From Candidatus Nanoarchaeia archaeon (lineage in GTDB: Archaea; Nanobdellota; Nanobdellia; Woesearchaeales; ARS49): 64,000 bases of DNA. The notes under the pieces are model-generated. The model was not told where the DNA came from. It ran no database searches and saw only the letters and a program-made list of their open reading frames with translations. A program made the position numbers and the translations under genes. Where the stretch lies: NCBI GenBank assembly GCA_041488275.1, contig JBGPOY010000003.1, positions 14,092 to 78,091 on the forward strand. Reading direction: 5' to 3'. Shown piece after piece: positions 2,935-63,561 of this stretch (the first letter of the stretch is position 1; each line of letters starts with the position of its first letter).

Positions 2935-4998
2935 ATGTTACTCAAATCGCTGTCGCTAAAAAATATTCGGAGCTATGTCGAACAGCAGGTGGAGTTTCCG
3001 TCCGGCACGCTGCTGCTCGCCGGCGACATCGGCTCGGGCAAGTCAACGATTCTTCTCGCGATTGAGTTCGCGCTGTTCGGACTGCTCCGCGGCGACGTCG
3101 ATGGAAGCGCGCTGCTCCGCAACGGCAGCCGCGAGGGTTTTGTCGAGCTCACGTTCACGCTGGACAGCAAGGAGCACGTGCTGCACCGCGCGCTGAAGCG
3201 CCAGAAGGAGCGAGTCAGTCAGGAAGCGGGCTGGATGCAAACGGATGGCGTCCGCAAGGACGGCACCGCCCAAGAGCTGCGCGCGTGGGTGCTCGACCTG
3301 CTCGGCTATCCGAAGGAGTTTCTCACCAAGAGCAAGAGTATGCTGTTCCGCTATACGGTTTTCACGCCGCAGGAAGAGATGAAACGCATTCTGTTCGAGG
3401 AAAAAGACGCGCGCCTTGAGACGCTGCGCCGCGTGTTCAACGTCGATAAGTACAAGCGCATCAAGGAAAACGCCGCAATCTACGTGCGGGAACTCCGGGA
3501 AGAACGCCGCTCGCTGGAAGGGCAGACAATTGACCTCGAATCAAAACGCAACGCGCTGGCGCTGAAACGCGAAGAATCCGACGCGGTCAAAGAACGCTCG
3601 GAACGCGTCAAGCACGCGCTCGAGATTGCGCGGCAACAGACGCAGGCGCAAAGGACAGTCGTTGTGCAGCACGAAGAGAGCGTGAGAAACGCCCAGCGCA
3701 TCCGCACCGATCTTTCCGTCGTACAGACCAGCGTCCTGCACCAGGAACAAACGCTCCAGCGCGCGCAGGCCGACCGCCAACGGCTGCTTTCCCAGCAGGA
3801 AACACTTGCCAAGGAACTTCCCGCGTCGCTTCCGCCGATTGAGCACGCGCGAGCGGCTGTCGCGCAGAAGGACGCGCAGCTCGCCGAGTTGGAGAAGACG
3901 ATTCGCAACTTCCACGCGGCAATAGCCCAGATTAGCACGATGAAGAAAATGTCGGAAGACTTGAAGCAGAAAGTCGCGTCCATCTCCAATTGTCCGACAT
4001 GCCTGCAAGTGGTCACGCAGGAGCACAAGAACCGCATCGCGTTTGGCGAGGACCAGAAACTGCACGAGCACGAGAAGCACCTTACCTATAATACTGCGAC
4101 CAAGGAACAGCTCGAGACGCAGTTGGTCATCATGCGGCAGGAACTGCAAGGGTTGCGTCTGCAGGAACAGCAGGCGTTGCTCGCGCACGCCAAGCAAAAG
4201 GCGCTCGCGGACCTCGCGCAGCAGGTCGCGGCAAAGGCGGAGCAGATAACGCAGTTCCACGACGCGCTCGAAGGATTACGGCAGAAAAAGACCGAACTCA
4301 TATCGATGGTTGAAGCGAACGCCAATACGGAGCAGGCGGCGACAAAAGCGAAACAGGCGCTCGATGTTCTGCTTATCGAGGAACGGAAATATGACGTCGA
4401 TTTCGCGCGGCTGACGCAGGATTATCACAGCATTGAGAAATATATCGCGTCGCTTGCCGATGAGCTCAAGCTCAAGGAACAGGCGCGCGAGAAACTGCAG
4501 CGCATCGCCGGCGTGCAGGCGTGGCTCACCGACCAGTTCTCCAACTTAATGGACGTGATGGAAAAGCACGTGCTCTCGCGCGTGCATCACGAGTTCAACG
4601 ACTTGTTCCAGCGCTGGTTCGGCATTCTGGTCGAGGACGAACTGCTCTCGGCGCGGCTGGATGACGCGTTCAGTCCGATCGTGGTGCAGAATGGGTTTGA
4701 AGTTGACGTATCTCATCTGTCCGGCGGAGAAAAGACCGCATGCGCGCTCGCGTATCGTTTGGCGCTGAACAAGGTCATCAACGACGTCATCGGCAGCATC
4801 CGCACGCGGGACGTCCTCATTCTTGACGAGCCGACGGACGGCTTCTCGAGCGAACAGCTCGACAAGGTGCGCGACGTGCTGGAACAACTGCATCTGGGTC
4901 AGGTGATTCTGGTCAGCCACGAAAGCAAGATTGAGTCGATGGTTGACTCCGTGCTGCGCGTGCAGAAGGACGGGCACGTGTCCCGCATCGCTGCGTAG
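2935..4998 (+). CDS. rad50: Rad50-type SMC-like ATPase (short form)
   Basis: Walker A GDIGSGKST, central zinc hook CPTC within a long coiled coil, signature SGGEKT, Walker B LILDEPTDG, and an H-loop-like SHES. 687 aa. Confidence 0.85.
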   Translation: MLLKSLSLKNIRSYVEQQVEFPSGTLLLAGDIGSGKSTILLAIEFALFGLLRGDVDGSALLRNGSREGFVELTFTLDSKEHVLHRALKRQKERVSQEAGWMQTDGVRKDGTAQELRAWVLDLLGYPKEFLTKSKSMLFRYTVFTPQEEMKRILFEEKDARLETLRRVFNVDKYKRIKENAAIYVRELREERRSLEGQTIDLESKRNALALKREESDAVKERSERVKHALEIARQQTQAQRTVVVQHEESVRNAQRIRTDLSVVQTSVLHQEQTLQRAQADRQRLLSQQETLAKELPASLPPIEHARAAVAQKDAQLAELEKTIRNFHAAIAQISTMKKMSEDLKQKVASISNCPTCLQVVTQEHKNRIAFGEDQKLHEHEKHLTYNTATKEQLETQLVIMRQELQGLRLQEQQALLAHAKQKALADLAQQVAAKAEQITQFHDALEGLRQKKTELISMVEANANTEQAATKAKQALDVLLIEERKYDVDFARLTQDYHSIEKYIASLADELKLKEQAREKLQRIAGVQAWLTDQFSNLMDVMEKHVLSRVHHEFNDLFQRWFGILVEDELLSARLDDAFSPIVVQNGFEVDVSHLSGGEKTACALAYRLALNKVINDVIGSIRTRDVLILDEPTDGFSSEQLDKVRDVLEQLHLGQVILVSHESKIESMVDSVLRVQKDGHVSRIAA

Positions 4999-5003
4999 TC
5001 ATT

Positions 5004-5020
5004 CGTAATGTTTATAAATA
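5004..5020 (+). promoter_or_regulatory. BRE/TATA promoter for the 5043 gene
   Basis: gtttataaata lies about 25 nt upstream of the gaagaagg-ATG. Confidence 0.5.
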
Positions 5021-5042
5021 AAGACGCGCATACGGAAGAAGG

Positions 5043-6482
5043 ATGGCAAAGAGGGTGCTGCAGACAATTCTATTGCTTGCCACGGTTCTCGCTCTCGCCT
5101 CGGTTGCCTTCGCGTTTGAATTCCACGTGGACATCCAGCCCAGCGAAGCCAGCACCAAAATCGGGCAGTCCGCCAACTATACGCTCACCATCTCGCACGA
5201 CTCTCAGAAAACAGAATCGTTTGACATTTATTCTCCCGACGTTGAATGGGACATCACGACCGACGTGCTGCGTCCGGTCGCGGTCGCGAAAGGCGAAACC
5301 AAGATCGTGAAGCTGATGGTGCGCCCGCTGTACGCCACGCCCGGCTATTACGCGTTCGCGCTGCACGTCCGGCACGCCGGCACGGGCGACTTGATTAAGA
5401 ATGTCATCATCATCGGCGTTCAGCCGAAGAACTACGTTCCCGGACAGTACACTCCCGCCGTGCGCATCACGCCCGTCATCGCGCCTTCCGTTGACCCGCG
5501 CGAACCGATTGTCGTCACGCTGAACGTCAACAACGCCAACAACCGCGACCTCAAGACCGTCGCGTTCAAGATTCGCAGTAATCTTCTGAATACTGACACC
5601 ATCATCAATCTGAACGGACTGGAAAAGAAACAGCTCGTCTTCCCCATCAGGATTCCCGCCGACACGCCGCCGCAAAAGGACACGCTCCGCGTCACCGCGC
5701 TCGTGCCTGACGGCGACGAAATCATCCCGTTCACCGCAGAACCTGTCGACTATGCCGTGATGGAATACGGCGAGATTGCCTCTTCCGTCGCGGAGAAAGA
5801 CACGTTCCTCAAGCGCGAGTGGGTCTACACGCTCACGAACAACGGCAACGCGCCGAAAACGACCGAATACAAACTCCGCAGCAACTTCTTCCAGAGCTGG
5901 TTCACGACCGCACCCGGAAGCCACGAAATCAAGCTCGCTGACGGACGCTACAACGCATGGGACATCAGCCTCGGCGTCGGCGAACACACGACTGTCGCCG
6001 TCACGACCAACTATCGCCCGCTCCTGATTATTTTCCTCATCGTCGCCGTCGCGCTGGGCGCGTACTACCTGTTCCGCAGCCCGCTCGTCGTGCGCAAGAG
6101 CGCCGTCGTGATTGCCGCCCGCGAAGGCGGCATGAGCGAATTGAAAGTCCTGATTGAAGTCTCCAACCGCAGCGGACGCCCCGTCAAGAACGTCCAAGTG
6201 CTGGACAAAGTGCCGCACATCGCCTCGGTCGTGCGCGACTTTGACGTCGGCACCATCCGCCCGGTGAAAATCGCCCATGACGACAAGAAAGGAACGCTGA
6301 TGAAGTGGGCGTTCGAAGAACTCGACGCGGGCGAGGAACGAGTCATCGCGTACAAGATTCGCAGCAAGCTCAGCATCCTCGGTCAGATGAGGCTGCCTGT
6401 TTCCGTTACGAAGTGCGAGACGTCTCCCGGACACGAAAGAAGGACGAAGTCGAACATTTCTCAGATTGGGTTCGGGCAGTGA
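5043..6482 (+). CDS. Predicted cell-surface/membrane protein (signal peptide, Ig-like repeats, one TM helix)
   Basis: N-terminal hydrophobic signal LLLATVLALASVAFA and an internal TM segment LLIIFLIVAVALGAYYLF. No catalytic motifs. Confidence 0.65.
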   Translation: MAKRVLQTILLLATVLALASVAFAFEFHVDIQPSEASTKIGQSANYTLTISHDSQKTESFDIYSPDVEWDITTDVLRPVAVAKGETKIVKLMVRPLYATPGYYAFALHVRHAGTGDLIKNVIIIGVQPKNYVPGQYTPAVRITPVIAPSVDPREPIVVTLNVNNANNRDLKTVAFKIRSNLLNTDTIINLNGLEKKQLVFPIRIPADTPPQKDTLRVTALVPDGDEIIPFTAEPVDYAVMEYGEIASSVAEKDTFLKREWVYTLTNNGNAPKTTEYKLRSNFFQSWFTTAPGSHEIKLADGRYNAWDISLGVGEHTTVAVTTNYRPLLIIFLIVAVALGAYYLFRSPLVVRKSAVVIAAREGGMSELKVLIEVSNRSGRPVKNVQVLDKVPHIASVVRDFDVGTIRPVKIAHDDKKGTLMKWAFEELDAGEERVIAYKIRSKLSILGQMRLPVSVTKCETSPGHERRTKSNISQIGFGQ

Positions 6483-7142: not shown

Positions 7143-7270
7143 TCCCCTTGCCCGGATTTGAACCGGGAACCTTGCGGGTTCTGCTGACTCACTGTCATCC
7201 TTGGCGTTGCGCCACGTCGGTGAGTGACTCTCGTCTACAGCCGCACGCTCTGCCGTTGAGCTACAAGGGG
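7143..7270 (-). tRNA. tRNA-Tyr(GTA) with a ~53-nt intron 3' of the anticodon
   Basis: Acceptor CCCCTTG/CAAGGGG carries C1-G72, the archaeal Tyr identity pair. D arm GCTC..GAGC, anticodon stem TGCGG/CCGCA with loop CTGTAG interrupted, T arm CCCGG-TTCAAAT-CCGGG. No encoded CCA. Confidence 0.85.
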
Positions 7271-8754: not shown

Positions 8755-8828
8755 GGGCTGCTAGCTCAACCTGGCAGAGCAGCTGGCTTTTAACCAGCGG
8801 GTTAAGGGTTCAAATCCCTTGCAGCCCG
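8755..8828 (+). tRNA. tRNA-Lys(TTT)
   Basis: Acceptor GGGCTGC/GCAGCCC, anticodon stem GCTGG/CCAGC, loop CTTTTAA, T arm AAGGG-TTCAAAT-CCCTT. Confidence 0.95.
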
Positions 8829-8884
8829 TCAAGTGACGGGGTGCAAGCTCACCGAGCGCAACTCGGTGTTTGCTTGCAGCCCGT
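8818..8884 (+). repeat. 12-nt direct repeat of the tRNA-Lys 3' end bracketing a 43-nt hairpin-bearing insert
   Basis: cttgcagcccgt occurs at 8818-8829 and 8873-8884. The hairpin CACCGAG-CGCAA-CTCGGTG lies at 8850-8868. Confidence 0.7.
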
Positions 8885-20932: not shown

Positions 20933-21199
20933 CTACTTTCTCTTCCGCTCAAACGTCCACTTCATCGCCGCGAGGACGATGATGCAGACGCCGACGAACG
21001 CGTTCAGAAACGTGATGAAGAAGTCGCCGAGATGCAGTCCGTAAAAGAAGAACAGGGTTGCGCCGGTGATGCCGAAGAACGTCAAAAGCCAGTTGAGGTC
21101 CTTCAAATGCTTGGTTTTCCACGCCTGCCAGAGCTCGGGAATCCATTGGAGCAGGACACAGATGCTTCCCAGCGTGGCAACGACGTCCCAGACGTTCAT
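20933..21199 (-). CDS. PQ-loop / SemiSWEET-like three-helix transporter
   Basis: 88 aa with three TM helices. LLQWIPELWQAWKTKHLKDL resembles the PQ-loop motif followed by a basic stretch. TATA tatttatagg lies about 24 nt upstream, so the transcript is probably leaderless. Confidence 0.55.
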   Translation of the reverse strand: MNVWDVVATLGSICVLLQWIPELWQAWKTKHLKDLNWLLTFFGITGATLFFFYGLHLGDFFITFLNAFVGVCIIVLAAMKWTFERKRK

Positions 21200-29219: not shown

Positions 29220-31118
29220 TTATTCGAGCCCGAGTCCCGACCAGAACGGGCTGCCGCGGTATTCTTCAGACAACGCCATCTCGCCGAACAGGAAGTAGGG
29301 CGGATGGTTTTGGGCGAAGTAGGAGTGTTGGGCGGTGTTCCAGTCAATTCTCTTCCCGCCGGGAGCGGAAAGCCCGTAAATGCTGTGCCCGAAGAGCTTC
29401 CAGCCGCCGTAGAGAGCTTCGTACTGCTTCGCGGGGTCTTGCGCGCCGGGTTCGACGACTAAGTCGATGGGCTTGCCTTGCTTTTCGGCGGCGGCTTTCA
29501 TGAGTTGGACAAATTCCTTGATGGGCGCGCTGCCCATCCCCGGCGTCAGGTGTTCGTCTTGGTAGCCGAAGTTGTCGGAAATGTGCAGGTGCCCGACGAC
29601 CTTGTGCTTGTTGAGGTCGTCCATTTCGGACAGCAGCCACTTGTTGAAGCGCTTGTCCGAGTCAGCAATGCTTTCGCCGGGCTTGGACTGGAAGTACTTG
29701 CGCCAGACGTTCACGTGTCCGACGTCGACGGTCGCCTTGATGTGTTTCTCGGCTTCCGAATACGCAGCGTCGGGCGACATTCCTTTTTGGTCCTGCAACA
29801 GTTTTGCCATCCGCGAACGGGATTCGAGCACGAGCGTCTTGATTTCCTGCGGGTGCGAGCCGTACGTTTCGGGAAAAATGCCTTCGGGCGCGACGAACAA
29901 GTCCTTCTTGAGCTTCTTTTCCTTCTCGATGTTGTACGCGAACATACCCAGTTGAGCGATGGATTCTGCGCTCTTTTTCACGGCAAATTCGGTGATGGGT
30001 TTGAGCCGCTGGAATTGGTCGTCAAAGTCCTTGATTTGTTCCTGATAGGAAAGCGCGGACTGCTGGATGCGCGAGAGCTGGCGGTCGAGATGGTCTTTCG
30101 CAATCTTCAGTCGTTCTGTCGGGAGTCCTCGCTCGGGCATGACCAAGTCGGGAGGGACTCCTTCTTCGTGGAATTCCTTCATCAGGTGTTCCTTGTCCTT
30201 GCCCGCCATGTGCTCGAGCTTCTGCCACTTGGTCATCGCTTCTTCAACGCGCTTCTTCCTCTCAAGAAGACGGTCGTAGTCCTGCAAGTGCCAGAGGCGT
30301 TCGCCTTCCGCCTGCAGCGTGCGGGCGTTGACGAGTTCCTTGTAATAGATTTGTTCGGGCTTGAGCTTCTGGTCAGGATGCCCCGCGTTCCAGTCCTCGG
30401 TTTTCTTCTCGATGTCCTTCCATTCCAGCGTCTGGAGCTTGAACTTCTTGTTCTTGACATCGTATTCAGGAATCGGGTTGCCGAACGAGTCAGATTTCAG
30501 CGTGCCGTCGGGGTTTTTCTCGTACACGGGCGCGTTGATGGGGACGTTCTTGCGCACGGTCGTGACGACGTCGCCGGTGCGCTCGTCAACGAGGTACAGC
30601 GCGGCTTCGGTTTTTTCGTTCGGGTGCGCGAGGAACTCGACGTCGGCGCGTTTGTCCACGTCGAACAAAGGACGCGCGAATTCCTGCGCGTGAATCGTGA
30701 CGGCTCCGCCTTGCGCGGTGTCTGCCGCGAACTCGATGGCGCGCTTGATTTCCTGCATGTTTTGGACGCGCGAGTTCTCGTCAAAGCCGCGGTTGCCGAA
30801 GCCCGCGAAGCCTCCGGTTCCTACGGTAGCGTGCGTGCTCAGTTCGACCTTGTTGACTTTCGCGATTTCGCGAATCGTGCGGCGCTGTTCCGAGTCAATG
30901 CTTTCGGGAGTGATTTGCCCTGAGAAAATGCTGCCCTTGCCGGCTCCGAGAAAACCGATTTCGACTTTGCTCGCGCCCTCGCGGATTTTTGCGATGAGCG
31001 GCTGAACCGCGTCCTTGGTCGCGATGATGCTGATGCCGATGTCGCGGATGGGGATGAGCGCGTCTTCATTGTAGTCGCGGTCCATCGAGTGATAGTAGCC
31101 GCGGTCGGGACCCGCCAT
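29220..31118 (-). CDS. Xylose-isomerase/endonuclease-IV-like TIM-barrel protein interrupted by a ~250-aa helical insert
   Basis: N-terminal half: ELSTHA...GGAVTIHAQEF. C-terminal half: VDVGHVN...VGHLHISDNFGYQDEHLTPGMGSAPI...VVEPG. These are separated by a Lys/Glu-rich region. The ATG abuts the stop of the 203-aa ORF. Confidence 0.6.
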   Translation of the reverse strand: MAGPDRGYYHSMDRDYNEDALIPIRDIGISIIATKDAVQPLIAKIREGASKVEIGFLGAGKGSIFSGQITPESIDSEQRRTIREIAKVNKVELSTHATVGTGGFAGFGNRGFDENSRVQNMQEIKRAIEFAADTAQGGAVTIHAQEFARPLFDVDKRADVEFLAHPNEKTEAALYLVDERTGDVVTTVRKNVPINAPVYEKNPDGTLKSDSFGNPIPEYDVKNKKFKLQTLEWKDIEKKTEDWNAGHPDQKLKPEQIYYKELVNARTLQAEGERLWHLQDYDRLLERKKRVEEAMTKWQKLEHMAGKDKEHLMKEFHEEGVPPDLVMPERGLPTERLKIAKDHLDRQLSRIQQSALSYQEQIKDFDDQFQRLKPITEFAVKKSAESIAQLGMFAYNIEKEKKLKKDLFVAPEGIFPETYGSHPQEIKTLVLESRSRMAKLLQDQKGMSPDAAYSEAEKHIKATVDVGHVNVWRKYFQSKPGESIADSDKRFNKWLLSEMDDLNKHKVVGHLHISDNFGYQDEHLTPGMGSAPIKEFVQLMKAAAEKQGKPIDLVVEPGAQDPAKQYEALYGGWKLFGHSIYGLSAPGGKRIDWNTAQHSYFAQNHPPYFLFGEMALSEEYRGSPFWSGLGLE

Positions 31119-45980: not shown

Positions 45981-46052
45981 GTCGTTCGTCGTTTTCCAAC
46001 TCAATCCGAGCTGCGACTCGGATGAGCCACAGGACGCATTGCGTCCTGTGTG

Positions 46053-46165
46053 CTTCGTGAAGCAGAAAGAAGGGTCTCAATCCTGCTTGCGAAGCAGGCA
46101 GTTATGGCTTGCTTCTTGATGCTGAACGAGAAGGAATTTGGCCAAACTTTACCAAAGGTTGAGCG
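46053..46165 (+). repeat. Copy 2 of the ~110-nt structured repeat (first copy at 18309-18420)
   Basis: Hairpin CTGCTTGC-GAA-GCAGGCAG at 46083-46101 has paired substitutions relative to copy 1. It lies immediately upstream of the tuf promoter. Confidence 0.75.
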
Positions 46166-60709: not shown

Positions 60710-60792
60710 CGCCGCCGGCAGGATTTGAACCTGCAGCCCCTTGCGGGAACGGTTTTCGAGACCGTCGCACTACCGGATTATGCGACAGCGGC
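60710..60792 (-). tRNA. tRNA-Ser(CGA)
   Basis: Acceptor GCCGCTG/CGGCGGC, anticodon stem ACGGT/ACCGT with loop CTCGAAA, long variable arm TCCCGCAAGGGGC, T arm GCAGG-TTCAAAT-CCTGC. Confidence 0.88.
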
Positions 60793-60891
60793 ATTGAAAG
60801 TGTGTACATGCGCCACGGAGGCTCGCTCCCTGACGACTGCCGATGTCGCGACCGCCGAGCGGCCTCGGCGTGGATGCGACAGCGGCATTGA
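60780..60891 (-). repeat. 18-nt direct repeat of the tRNA-Ser(CGA) 5' end plus leader, bracketing a 76-nt hairpin-bearing insert
   Basis: atgcgacagcggcattga occurs at 60780-60797 and 60874-60891. The hairpin gccgag-cggc-ctcggc lies at 60854-60869. Confidence 0.8.
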
Positions 60892-60897
60892 GTGTGG

Positions 60898-61360: not shown

Positions 61361-61445
61361 ATCAAATCACCTCTTTCACTCGTAAAATGATTATTCTGTA
61401 TATAAATTAAAGGGTTTTTTGAGAGGGCGCAGCGAGGAGAGAAAA

Positions 61446-61527
61446 GACGCCACCGCCCGGACAAACACCGAGACCGCTCGGTGAGCCCGTGCGGGGCAAT
61501 GTACTTTATGAGACGCCACCGCCCGGA
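61446..61527 (+). repeat. Two 16-nt copies of the tRNA-Ser(GGA) 3'-end sequence bracketing a 50-nt hairpin-bearing insert
   Basis: gacgccaccgcccgga occurs at 61446-61461 and 61512-61527. The last 14-15 nt equal 63378-63391 inside tRNA-Ser(GGA). The hairpin caccgag-accg-ctcggtg lies at 61466-61483. Confidence 0.8.
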
Positions 61528-61638
61528 GCACTAGCGTTCAACGCAGACGCTTACAGGCTGTGACATGATCTAAGTTCTTGAAAACACCCGTGGATGGGAG
61601 CTTCCAGGTCTACTGAGTTTCACAGACGAGAAGTTCTA

Positions 61639-62301
61639 TTAAAGTCTTTTGGCCAGCTCTTGATACGCGACAGTGATGTATGGCAGAGCGAGATTAACAG
61701 TCTTTAGGGGAACGTTAATCATCGGATTATGCACGCCAGTATCCCCGAGGAATTTGACTCCGTTGAGTTCTTCCGCAGTCTTTGGCATCAAATACGGCTT
61801 TGTACCCACTGGATGGCTGCTTGCCATGCCAATCATCGCACCCAAGCCAAGAAGGTGTCCCTTAGCATTCTTCAGCGTATCGAGCTGTTTGTCTCGTGCG
61901 AAGACGTGGAAGATCAATTTTTCCAAGATTTTCCGCAACAAAAAGGCCGTGCAATCCCCACTCACTCCTGCGTTGTGCTTCAAATCGCGTAATTCCGAAG
62001 GACAAATCTTCTGAAGCACGGGAAGCACGTCATCAGGAATAACATCCTGCACAACAACCACTTTTGGCGGATATCTTTGTGCGTATTGCTCTCTATATTG
62101 CCGCAAGTACTTCGCCCTCTTCAGAGCCATGCGCAAGCTGGACGCTGTCGGATGACAGCCGTCCTTGGAAAGAGCTTCGACAATCTGTTGCCTCACCTTC
62201 TCACTCTTGAAGAAGCCGCCGTGCCAAAGACGCACCAAAGATGTCGGTACCGAGTTACTCTTCATCTTCTTCCTCATCCACGTACGGATGCTTCTGGACA
62301 T
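61639..62301 (-). CDS. Hypothetical protein with N-terminal wHTH-like segment (islet gene)
   Basis: 220 aa. IVEALSKDGCHPTASSLRMALKRAKYL resembles the neighbouring 86-aa protein. Confidence 0.5.
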   Translation of the reverse strand: MSRSIRTWMRKKMKSNSVPTSLVRLWHGGFFKSEKVRQQIVEALSKDGCHPTASSLRMALKRAKYLRQYREQYAQRYPPKVVVVQDVIPDDVLPVLQKICPSELRDLKHNAGVSGDCTAFLLRKILEKLIFHVFARDKQLDTLKNAKGHLLGLGAMIGMASSHPVGTKPYLMPKTAEELNGVKFLGDTGVHNPMINVPLKTVNLALPYITVAYQELAKRL

Positions 62302-62515
62302 ACGCGTATTTACCGGGCTTCCCTTTCCGCGTAAGGAACTTAGCTCTCTGCAGGGCCTTCATCAGCCCTTTGTCCGTGAAGTTATAGCCGTCGGCTTCCA
62401 AGGCCTCCTGTATCTCGCCGACATTCTTCAACTTCAGAAATTTCTTTGCCTTCCACAACATCTTGAGCGCATCGGGTGCTGTTTTCGCAATCGTCATCTT
62501 CGCACGTACCTCCAT
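62255..62515 (-). CDS. Small wHTH-like protein (islet gene)
   Basis: 86 aa. IQEALEADGYNFTDKGLMKALQRAKFL, with an acidic tail. Confidence 0.5.
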   Translation of the reverse strand: MEVRAKMTIAKTAPDALKMLWKAKKFLKLKNVGEIQEALEADGYNFTDKGLMKALQRAKFLTRKGKPGKYAYVQKHPYVDEEEDEE

Positions 62516-62883
62516 AACTTATTTTCCTCCATTCTTCGCAGTTCCTTGCGGCGCGTCAGGCCGAGCAATACTCCTGACAACGTTGTAATCGGTACGAACA
62601 CGCCTCTGGATTCGAGTGTTCGCTTTACGTCAACAATACCGATAGGCTTGTCGAATTCACCGTCGACAAGAAGTTCGCGAACATAATCAGTTACCGAATG
62701 CTTTGATTTTCCTGCTTCCGATTTGTGCGGCTTCGTGCTTGGTTTGCTCGCGGTTTCTTCAACTTCAGGTGCGGCGTACTCGCGCATGATTCTTGCGACT
62801 TCGTCGTGGCTTCCCTCGACGACAATGGTCGTACCGTTCTTTGTTTTAATGTGTGCTTTTACCATGTGATAACCACCAAGCAA
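62494..62883 (-). CDS. Hypothetical protein with C-terminal wHTH-like segment (islet gene)
   Basis: 129 aa. VDVKRTLESRGVFVPITTLSGVLLGLTRRKEL. Confidence 0.45.
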   Translation of the reverse strand: MLGGYHMVKAHIKTKNGTTIVVEGSHDEVARIMREYAAPEVEETASKPSTKPHKSEAGKSKHSVTDYVRELLVDGEFDKPIGIVDVKRTLESRGVFVPITTLSGVLLGLTRRKELRRMEENKLWRYVRR

Positions 62884-62986
62884 TATCGCGATAGTGCGAT
62901 ATAAAAACCTTTCGGATTACGAGGGTCAGCAGCCAAGAATAAAGCTCACGCTAGAAGAATCGCAGCCTTCTCCCCTCAGAAGTGCC

Positions 62987-63214
62987 TTAGATGTTTTCCA
63001 GCACTGCGACTACAACGGCCATCACTAGGCAGATGAAAATGACTGCTGCGATGTCCGCCGACGGTGCTATCGCTTGCGCGAGTTGCCAAAATGCGTCGAG
63101 TATTTGGGTAATTGCCGACATTTCTTGTTGTGTACCTCCTTTAATGTAGACCTGAGCCAAACTCAAGCTAACCAACGCAGCGCTATGGCAGGCTTTTAAC
63201 TGTTGAGAATCCAT
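62987..63214 (-). CDS. Small hypothetical membrane protein (islet gene)
   Basis: 75 aa with a C-terminal TM helix AAVIFICLVMAVVVAVL. Confidence 0.4.
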   Translation of the reverse strand: MDSQQLKACHSAALVSLSLAQVYIKGGTQQEMSAITQILDAFWQLAQAIAPSADIAAVIFICLVMAVVVAVLENI

Positions 63215-63377
63215 GTCCAGTGTCCACTGTCGAGCAGCAAGAATCTCTACCCTGAACGCCGCACCCTGACGTTAGGGTGAAAACAGGCAGAAAAACGTGT
63301 GGCGTCTATGGTTGAGACAGGACGCTCACCGTAGAACTGGACCAAAACGCGTCAGGCGTTTGTGGTTCAAAATAGAA

Positions 63378-63461
63378 CGCCACCGCCCGGATTTGAACCG
63401 GGAAATCCTTGCGGAAACAAGCTTTCCAGGCTTGCGCCTTACCAGGTTGGGCCACGGTGGC
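63378..63461 (-). tRNA. tRNA-Ser(GGA)
   Basis: Acceptor GCCACCG/CGGTGGC, 3-bp D stem, anticodon stem CAAGC/GCTTG with loop CTGGAAA, long variable arm, T arm CCCGG-TTCAAAT-CCGGG. Confidence 0.9.
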
Positions 63462-63561
63462 ATGAATGTCAGTGTGAAATGCACAGGCGCGCCGGCGCCG
63501 TGCACGCTGCCGCTGGCCTAGCCCGAGCGGACTCGGGCGTGGGTCACGGTGGCATGAATGT
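63453..63561 (-). repeat. 17-nt direct repeat of the tRNA-Ser(GGA) 5' end plus leader, bracketing a 75-nt hairpin-bearing insert
   Basis: cacggtggcatgaatgt occurs at 63453-63469 and 63545-63561. The hairpin gcccgag-cgga-ctcgggc lies at 63521-63538, and an imperfect palindrome at 63480-63504. Confidence 0.8.

Follow-up and report, generated by a model that had tools for sequence, protein, structure and literature searches.

How does DNA of a different base composition come to lie between an intact tRNA gene and a second copy of that gene's own 3' end, when no recombinase can be recognized in it? The question is raised by an islet of 1849 bp beside tRNA-Ser(GGA) in a 64,000-nt stretch of a Candidatus Nanoarchaeia archaeon (assembly GCA_041488275.1, contig JBGPOY010000003.1, positions 14,092 to 78,091), here called ‘the window’, whose sequence is also present in JGI metagenome 3300052990 on the 103-kb contig Ga0534153_0000110, where a histone-fold gene follows just past the window's end. 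The answer to which we would give a probability of roughly two in three is that the islet is horizontally acquired DNA which recombined into the 3' end of tRNA-Ser(GGA), is now without an integrase in the manner of a cis-mobilizable element (CIME), and carries as its cargo what is probably an addiction or defence module. The histone-fold gene, an intron-containing tRNA in the window and the nearest relatives of a flanking membrane protein place the host in the DPANN archaea, the mobile elements of whose tiny genomes have been little explored.

The site itself consists of the following, in window coordinates.

63378..63461, minus strand: tRNA-Ser(GGA), the intact target gene (ARAGORN; Rfam tRNA, 54.9 bits).
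63377..63391, minus strand: proximal repeat, a presumed att core or target duplication, comprising the last 14 nt of the tRNA and 1 nt downstream, TCCGGGCGGTGGCGT on the tRNA strand.
61528..63376, minus strand: the islet, 1849 bp of lower-GC DNA, probably acquired horizontally (overall GC, GC at third codon positions (GC3) and composition profiles).
61511..61527, minus strand: middle repeat, 17 nt, TCCGGGCGGTGGCGTCT on the tRNA strand, forming the distal boundary of the islet and the proximal boundary of a mini-insert, C.
61445..61461, minus strand: outermost repeat, 17 nt, with the original chromosomal flank beyond it.

It was an earlier, sequence-only reading that pointed to the recurrence of the tRNA 3' end at 61514-61527 and 61448-61461, and the copies are indeed exact: the 14-mer CGCCACCGCCCGGA is present three times in the window, at these two places and at 63378-63391 in the tRNA. 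By an arithmetic estimate, the two strands of 64 kb should hold only about 5e-4 extra exact copies of a 14-mer, so the repeats are not due to chance. The two distal copies (61445-61461 and 61511-61527) are identical over 17 nt, AGACGCCACCGCCCGGA, of which the tRNA-proximal copy (63377-63391) matches 15. The repeat runs from the last base of the T loop through the 3' strands of the T and acceptor stems to the discriminator and takes in one base downstream of it; an intact tRNA stands on one side only of the three copies, and the islet begins at 63376. These are the marks of an integrated element, with a tRNA 3' end as insertion point, the tRNA left intact, and direct repeats identical to it at both boundaries of the islet (15 nt, 63377-63391 and 61513-61527). 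At 63297-63311, within the islet and some 70 nt from its tRNA-proximal end, part of the core recurs in inverted orientation as GTGGCGTCT (9 nt; expectation about 0.014); this could be a candidate recombinase binding site, or chance. Elsewhere in the window, at 7143-7270 beside tRNA-Asp, a 128-nt intron-containing tRNA (an Rfam tRNA; tRNA-Tyr(GTA) by ARAGORN with introns allowed) has 14-15 nt of its T arm in common with that of tRNA-Ser(GGA).

Is the DNA between the repeats foreign? Its GC content is 0.495 as against 0.571 +/- 0.017 in other 1.85-kb windows (minimum 0.5235), a z of -4.5; GC3 in three of its four open reading frames (ORFs), at 0.51-0.57, falls under the minimum (0.579) of 38 long host ORFs; and, at the 400-nt resolution of the profiles, the shift is confined to the repeat-bounded segment. 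The impression from the bare letters that the islet is AT-richer than its surroundings has therefore stood up to a composition scan. The four small ORFs that had been noticed, all on the minus strand, are also there, and with the sequence in front of them they are, from the tRNA outwards:

62987..63214, minus strand: small membrane peptide, a 75-aa ORF with a C-terminal hydrophobic helix, outside the conserved cassette and without a homologue in 82 family loci.
62872..62910, minus strand: putative archaeal promoter TTTTTATAT with a TATA-like box, and a palindrome ATATCGC..ATCGCGATAT (62880-62897), read from the sequence.
62494..62865, minus strand: p123, first gene of the cassette, 123 aa, a small N-terminal domain and a C-terminal winged helix-turn-helix (wHTH)-like domain.
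62255..62515, minus strand: p86, second gene, 86 aa, a stand-alone wHTH.
61639..62265, minus strand: p208 (P0001), last gene, with a predicted N-terminal winged helix and a C-terminal domain that appears HEPN-like (DUF4145-like).

The p208 ORF may begin at 62301 (220 aa), a form for which a look-up by exact sequence gave no match; the called gene begins at its M13 and has 208 aa. For the membrane peptide the product is probably one of 44 aa starting from the ATG at 63119, rather than 75 aa, because a strong AAAGGAGGT ribosome-binding site precedes that ATG.

No integrase gene lies inside the islet, as had been claimed: Pfam, PHROGs, NCBIfam and PADLOC find no recombinase domain in the four ORFs, and indeed no significant match to them of any kind. 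Nor does a recombinase appear in the rest of the window among the genes with precomputed Pfam results (9.8-20.9 kb and 31.9-64 kb) and ten further ORFs, a few others, e.g. 2935-4998 and 29220-31118, having been left unscanned; the same holds, with the same limit, for Cas1, transposases and IntI. At the islet borders there are no recognizable int fragments of an SSV-type split integrase, and no terminal inverted repeats were found at its ends.

How, then, might it have entered? The islet would have recombined into the final 15 nt of tRNA-Ser(GGA), restoring the tRNA on one side and leaving a duplicate of its 3' end on the other. Conservative site-specific recombination with a core borne by the element is the mechanism we favour and infer; it goes naturally with a recombinase that was supplied in trans or has since been lost, and the islet would be what decay has left of a larger integrative element, or else a cassette that a recombinase encoded elsewhere has moved. 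The repeats also suggest an order of events. The middle and outer copies end ...GCGTCT and the tRNA-proximal copy ...GCGTTC, a difference that fits an arrival of the 49-nt mini-insert C first, flanked by its two 17-nt copies, with the islet later entering the tRNA-proximal copy and bringing its own downstream bases. The islet would thus have been inserted beside an older, unrelated mini-insert at the same site, a case of tandem accretion. Definite junctions can be predicted: islet-free chromosomes should read tRNA-core + CTCATAAAG if mini-insert C was kept or tRNA-core + CTTTTCTCTCC if both are absent, and an excised circle should read ...GTTGAACGCTAGTGC + core + TCTATTTTGAACC.

A hairpin insert between the two distal repeats had been described, and it proves to be 49 nt long (61462-61510). 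It is one of four such mini-inserts at tRNA ends in the window.

60803-60873: mini-insert A, 71 nt, at the 5' end of tRNA-Ser(CGA), with a 23-nt repeat.
63470-63539: mini-insert B, 70 nt, at the 5' end of tRNA-Ser(GGA), with a 22-nt repeat.
61462-61510, plus strand: mini-insert C, 49 nt, at the 3' end of tRNA-Ser(GGA), with a 17-nt repeat.
8830-8872: mini-insert D, 43 nt, at the 3' end of tRNA-Lys(UUU), with a 12-nt repeat, CTTGCAGCCCGT.

The hairpin of C, CACCGAG-ACCG-CTCGGTG (-11.4 kcal/mol, z = -3.4), is 4 nt from the outermost repeat. D, in the region 8818-8884, directly follows tRNA-Lys(UUU) (8755-8828) and has in common with C a 26-nt hairpin end, GCTCACCGAG-N4-5-CTCGGTGTTTG, the two differing only in the loop and being flanked by different repeats. 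For A (region 60780-60896) and B (63448-63561), the latter occupying the spacer between tRNA-Met and tRNA-Ser, the repeats combine 8-10 nt of leader with the initial 13-14 nt of the tRNA, and a CCGAG-N4-CTCGG hairpin stands beside the outer repeat. In all four the hairpin adjoins the repeat farthest from the tRNA body, and the hairpin CCGAG-N3-6-CTCGG is found five times in the window (0.5 expected), four of the five being in inserts bounded by duplicated tRNA ends. Four GC-rich hairpins are clustered at 45990-46110, between genes and upstream of that for EF-1alpha, among them a CCGAG-N6-CTCGG and one with a 10-bp stem, CACAGGACGC/GCGTCCTGTG, without a tRNA or flanking repeat.

The four closest metagenome-assembled genomes (MAGs) add seven mini-inserts, at Val, Ser-TGA (both ends), Glu, Ser-GGA and Ala tRNAs, with repeats of 15-29 nt. 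Those at 3' ends each end in a 5-7-bp hairpin 0-5 nt ahead of the outer repeat, and the whole range is 43-130 nt for the inserts and 12-29 nt for the repeats. A scan of viral contigs for the C/D hairpin end gave eight matches, about the number due to chance. Could the mini-inserts be minimal, end-only derivatives of the islet, as the sequence-only reading proposed? That idea loses its footing because the ends of the islet have no detectable similarity to them and its distal end does not fold into a hairpin (z = +0.3); to judge from these comparisons the mini-inserts are a family of their own, which occurs beside other tRNAs too and at 5' as well as 3' ends.

That units of this sort do insert at tRNA ends is seen in two related loci, one filled (L011) and one empty (L016). 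In the filled one, 146 nt are inserted at the 3' end of tRNA-Ser(TGA) and 17 nt are exactly duplicated, the flanks of the two loci being about 99% identical (9532-9700 in L011; empty site at about 9100-9130 in L016). The insertion comprises two 3'-type hairpin-ended mini-inserts (66 and 49 nt) around an internal 15-nt repeat of tRNA-Val type, and so reads tRNA[Ser core]-mini-[Val-type core]-mini-[Ser core], which is the arrangement predicted for an element with a Val-type core that enters a non-cognate Ser site with the crossover at the outer edge of the core, the tRNA being thereby preserved. Core switching following non-cognate events would also explain how C and D have the same end and different repeats. 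The filled locus has a second insertion, at tRNA-Val(GAC) (2724-2790). Upstream of tRNA-Ser(TGA) both loci have two to three tandem units of about 75 nt (L011 9765-9920; L016 9204-9289), each of some 30 nt of leader plus the tRNA 5' end and then a related 40-nt filler, with L011 having one unit more than L016.

Islets with cargo also recur. In more distant Woesearchaeota, repeats of the tRNA-Gln(CTG) 3' end, 13-17 nt long, bound integrase-less islets of 0.69 kb (L020, 10651-11336), 0.79 and 2.8 kb (L022, 1901-2697 and 2698-5528, two cassettes in tandem at the one tRNA) and 0.94 kb (L030, 10598-11538). Their cargo, as assigned by eye from translations with no Pfam scan, consists of RelE-like/antitoxin pairs, Fic, and a pair of HEPN and nucleotidyltransferase (MNT) proteins. 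A conserved distal end of about 30 nt, AATCCCTCTTTTTAACAGAAACAGTGAGTG, abuts the repeat, and there is no distal hairpin. A resemblance by eye (AACGyT.AGTG) between this end and the distal end of the window islet is not supported by alignment. Because these tRNA-Gln islets show the same pattern, the presence at tRNA 3' ends of small cassettes that have addiction-type cargo and no recombinase is to be counted as recurrent in the phylum, and the window islet as one more instance, with new cargo. An autonomous partner element was found neither in the window nor in 30 Woesearchaeota loci.

There is also a hint of polymorphism within a population. In run SRR29604914 an independent Logan contig, assembled from short reads, has its start exactly 30 nt ahead of the first islet-specific base. 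The Logan graph is built with k = 31, so that k-1 is 30 nt, and since such a graph breaks a contig k-1 nt before a branch, that sample probably holds a second continuation past the tRNA end, which might belong to an islet-free allele or to a relative with the same tRNA. A further Logan contig of the same organism (L058) breaks inside tRNA-Ser(CGA), at window position 60744, which suggests co-occurring relatives with common tRNA k-mers and is a caveat on taking contig breaks for insertion polymorphism. At about 20937-21091 of the window, JGI contigs Ga0534153_0003418 and Ga0534153_0000110 end and start, a break in that other assembly; the window is accordingly part of a longer assembly (148 kb).

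Several points weigh against an integrated element. The Logan contig break is explained equally well by a co-occurring relative with the same tRNA. No integrase has been seen, nor any excised form of the islet. An islet-free orthologous site was not recovered: the MAGs of Candidatus Nanoarchaeia and Woesearchaeota that are nearest by the flanking membrane protein (59-64% identity for the closest) have no synteny here, the tRNA cluster not being conserved in them, and look-ups with p50 and p49 found no islet-free contig. Lastly, the cassette of the islet occurs elsewhere without consistent flanking repeats or tRNA linkage, the consequence of which is that it is to be seen as cargo, with nothing to connect it to this integration mechanism.

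Should one go further and see a dedicated system at work? On a wider and quite tentative view, tRNA ends in this Woesearchaeales-like lineage, 3' and 5' alike, are the acceptor sites of a dedicated recombination system that moves recombinase-less cassettes (0.7-2.8 kb) with toxin or defence cargo and hairpin mini-inserts (43-130 nt). They would then constitute an integron-like platform, possibly acting on folded single-stranded hairpins, with the tRNA-Ser(GGA) islet as one captured cassette.

Among explanations that compete with site-specific recombination at an element-borne core, the one that survives best, improbable as we consider it to be, treats the repeats as target-site duplications made by a transposase-like integrase with staggered cuts, casposase/Cas1-like or other, with the islet and mini-inserts as its non-autonomous passengers. 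It accounts more simply than core switching does for C and D, whose 26-nt ends are near-identical and whose repeats come from different tRNAs and have different lengths (17 nt from Ser-GGA, 12 nt from Lys-UUU), and the Val and Ser-TGA mini-inserts of L011 show the same pattern. In most 3' cases the repeat has its left edge where the T loop meets the T stem, an insert of 43-130 bp is too short to recombine as a double-stranded circle, and casposons do duplicate 15 bp at a tRNA-Pro 3' end, their casposase inserting short duplexes (PMC5137440). However, repeats of 12-29 nt are unlike the product of a fixed stagger, and in L011 a Val-type repeat stands between the mini-inserts where a Ser duplication would be expected. 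In addition to the lack of terminal inverted repeats at the islet ends, none is apparent by eye at the ends of the mini-inserts, the window genes examined include no Cas1 or transposase, and the casposon duplication overlaps the tRNA by only 5 bp (PMC5137440), whereas 11-14 nt of tRNA are duplicated here.

Very improbable, in our estimate, is that tRNA ends act in the way of integron acceptors, capture being by way of a folded single-stranded hairpin, in the style of attC or the CTX attP, by a recombinase, dedicated or of the host, encoded elsewhere. The hairpins 0-5 nt from the outer repeat in 3'-end mini-inserts, and those of A and B likewise beside it, are what would have given rise to this thought, together with the tandem arrays (tRNA-islet-mini here; two cassettes at the L022 tRNA-Gln) and a cargo of toxin–antitoxin or defence type without a recombinase, as in integron cassettes. 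A single-stranded substrate would also remove the size problem of the mini-inserts, and integrons and clusters of attC sites lacking integrases (CALINs), with cross-domain cassettes, are on record in Nanoarchaeota (PMC9668308). Against it, the junction repeats are 12-19 nt of tRNA end with no GTTRRRY core, the R''/L''/L'/R' architecture of attC is not seen (by inspection; no attC model was run), an Rfam scan gave tRNAs only, the window genes examined include no IntI, and the islets that carry cargo, here and at tRNA-Gln, have no distal hairpin. That the islet is simply native DNA, its repeats left by the mini-insert event or a local duplication and its low GC a property of small, weakly expressed genes, can draw on the lack of a recovered empty site for tRNA-Ser(GGA) and on somewhat GC-poor small genes in the neighbourhood (a 50-aa ORF outside the islet has a GC of 0.516), but is scarcely credible given a third repeat exactly at the tRNA end 1864 bp away, a composition shift inside the repeat-bounded segment, a cassette that the closest MAG loci lack and unrelated bacteria possess, and tRNA-Gln repeat-bounded islets with different cargo in different Woesearchaeota.

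What is the cargo that was brought in? A winged-helix-type domain is common to p86, the C-terminus of p123 and the N-terminus of p208. The wHTH-like segment that the sequence-only reading saw as shared is real: p86 aligns with the p208 N-terminus at 38% identity, and the two are paralogous, with the p123 C-terminus aligning more weakly. Relatives of p208 are widespread. It has 236 homologues at 38-48% identity, none annotated, the few with an organism label being from MAGs of Nitrosomonas, Sulfuricaulis, Zixibacteria, Spirochaetia and Patescibacteria; 264 metagenome stretches, bacterial and archaeal, encode a relative, and a full hidden Markov model scan of 1.84 billion representatives picked out only 369 clusters for the family. 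Wherever its surroundings were examined, the p208 gene comes last in a series of two or three small overlapping genes on one strand. At least eight loci have the order p123-p86-p208, and p123-like genes are present in 22 family loci; p123 is 34% identical to the first cassette genes of loci L002 and L008 (the latter the Sulfuricaulis cassette, 4290-5663), and p86 57% identical to the 84-aa gene of L002. The operon appears to travel as a unit among Bacteria and Archaea.

It does not appear to travel with viruses or plasmids. Searches with p208 in IMG/VR, PLSDB plasmids and INPHARED phages found no match, as had those of the islet ORFs in PHROGs, and the cargo, so far as such comparisons go, is neither viral nor plasmid-borne. 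The proposal that the islet is a decayed or satellite-type integrated element survives in part: that it is foreign and integrase-less, sits at a tRNA 3' end between exact repeats, deviates in GC and has a patchily distributed cargo can be kept, and a standing as satellite of an archaeal virus or plasmid has no match to support it.

Linkage of the cassette to tRNAs is slight. Of 83 loci, 8 have a tRNA within about 3 kb of it, no more than would be expected where genomes are small, and no flanking repeats were found around it in L005, L008, L091 or L097. In the AT-rich genome of L002 (3243-3271 and 5093-5121), a cassette p123-p109-p84-p230 is flanked by TGATTATATCC(G/T)TTC, 15 nt with one mismatch, 1839 bp apart, which may be chance in AT-rich DNA; outside these repeats is an inverted pair, ATTGTCGAGAA/TTCTCGACAAT, as if the cassette had been inserted into the loop of a hairpin. 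Two metagenome loci have tRNA 3'-end repeats, L072 (736-751 and 2897-2912; 16 nt, exact) and L085 (2695-2713 and 4754-4772; 19 nt, two mismatches), and in each a repeat-bounded segment of 2.1 kb sits between the tRNA and the p208 cassette, directly adjoining the latter. The neighbouring genes in L085 resemble, by eye from their translations, nucleases of PD-(D/E)xK type, and the region is like a defence island.

What might the cassette do? The AlphaFold model of p208 has a mean confidence (pLDDT) of 87 for the whole protein, and the C-terminal 137 residues modelled alone have a pLDDT of 86 and a predicted template-modelling score (pTM) of 0.84. The N-terminal domain models as a winged helix by its structure matches, such being also the only matches in a BFVD fold search. 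For the isolated C-terminal domain, HEPN structures lead the Foldseek matches, making up at least 11 of the top 25 in the PDB at template-modelling (TM) scores of 0.45-0.60 and E-values of 0.4-5 (1ufb, Csm6, 1o3u, 5yep, 4nqf, 3o10, 7bxo and 1wol among them; the proteins matched are TT1696, TM0613, Csm6, SO_3166/HepT, sacsin and ST0689), and the model, at those E-values, has the four-helix up-down arrangement of the HEPN fold. The DUF4145 profile (PF13643) reaches at best 16.8 bits with the p208 family, under its cut-off of 23.1, the sub-threshold matches being in 6 of 34 members plus one distant member. A PDB sequence search with the family profile had no match, and Pfam revealed no informative extra domain in longer relatives. 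The family has two invariant motifs, LLRKILEK and KFLGDxxxH, with R111, K112, E115, D175 and H179 as its invariant polar residues. With modest confidence, then, the C-terminal domain may be called HEPN-like.

Genes that overlap, partners of wHTH type and a promoter palindrome make up an architecture that fits a toxin–antitoxin or abortive-infection module, and architecture and predicted fold together make a self-regulated module of this type the most likely identity of the cassette. In such a scheme the part of effector would fall to the HEPN-like domain and that of regulator or neutralizer to the wHTH paralogues, with the palindrome upstream of p123 as a candidate operator; a cargo that is addictive or protective would account for the persistence of the islet in a reduced genome. 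Telling against it are the absence from p208 of the arginine of the HEPN Rx4-6H motif (H179 is present, and K171 is in the place of R, 7 residues upstream), the weak Foldseek E-values and Pfam scores under the gathering threshold on which the HEPN assignment leans, and the lack of any PADLOC match to the cassette.

The same missing arginine would suit an alternative that we regard as doubtful, in which the three proteins are DNA-binding regulators or partition-like proteins of a mobile element and the HEPN-like domain is a non-catalytic helical bundle. The presence of one wHTH-type domain in all three proteins is in keeping with this, as is the want of PADLOC, Pfam and NCBIfam matches. A mere bundle, however, sits ill with invariant polar residues within LLRKILEK and KFLGDxxxH and with a patchy, cross-domain spread in variable regions that is typical of conflict systems, and HEPN families that have retained H and lack R do exist (PMC3710099). 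DUF4145 itself is a family of the HEPN clan linked to restriction and abortive-infection contexts (PMC3710099). Compared with the HEPN conflict modules described there (DUF4145-like, HEPN-MNT toxin–antitoxin, abortive infection), p208 has a like helical fold, a conserved histidine motif near the last helix, a fused N-terminal sensor or DNA-binding domain, and a location in variable, mobile regions; unlike them it has no Rx4-6H arginine and no MNT partner, its partners being two or three paralogous wHTH proteins, and with scores below the Pfam gathering threshold it is not a demonstrated member of the DUF4145/HEPN family.

Why should a sliver of DNA beside one tRNA gene matter? If read as above, it has cassettes of toxin or defence type crossing the divide between bacteria and archaea into DPANN genomes and lodging at tRNA ends without a recombinase of their own, at sites that are repeatedly struck by miniature hairpin inserts, with at least one clean pair of filled and empty sites between sister genomes. 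With its defined junctions and the hint of population polymorphism, the islet gives a handle on how accessory genes are gained and retained in reduced symbiotic archaea. It also serves to define an uncharacterized three-gene wHTH/HEPN-like operon, of which there are a few hundred clusters world-wide.

To which known kind of element does it come closest? Integron cassettes and CALINs (PMC9668308) are likewise small, recombinase-less tandem units, frequently with toxin–antitoxin or defence cargo, spread across domains, and hairpins feature in the mini-inserts; the boundaries here, in contrast, are tRNA ends (the repeat TCCGGGCGGTGGCGT) with no attC or GTTRRRY by inspection, the distal islet end does not fold, its z of +0.3 being that given above, cargo islets are without hairpins, and there is no IntI nearby among the window ORFs examined. 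Casposons (PMC5137440) have the preference for tRNA 3' ends, direct repeats of about 15 bp and short insertable substrates in common with the islet and mini-inserts, which differ in having no Cas1 casposase, PolB or terminal inverted repeats, in repeats almost wholly inside the tRNA (15 nt for the islet, 12-29 nt in the mini-insert family), and in targeting 5' ends also.

Elements of tRNA-targeting tyrosine integrases, which leave partial tRNA copies, for instance in Thermococcaceae (PMC9897764), are nearer. Insertion at the tRNA 3' end, an intact tRNA, a repeat on the far side, deviant composition and accessory cargo are features of both; unlike them the islet has neither an integrase nor int(N)/int(C), is only 1.85 kb, and is in a DPANN host. 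In the literature searched we found no description of such tRNA-integrated elements in DPANN archaea, nor of lineage-wide mini-inserts and recombinase-less cassettes at tRNA ends. The CIMEs (PMC5704250), as defined in the integrative and conjugative element systems of Firmicutes, differ in that here there is no autonomous partner present or known, and the tandem partner is a 49-nt mini-insert; like them the islet retains attL and attR, is without genes for integration and transfer, and is one of two repeat-bounded units in tandem at a single tRNA 3' end. By analogy, then, its closest known kin would be the decayed, integrase-less tRNA-integrated element, or in bacterial terms a CIME in tandem accretion.

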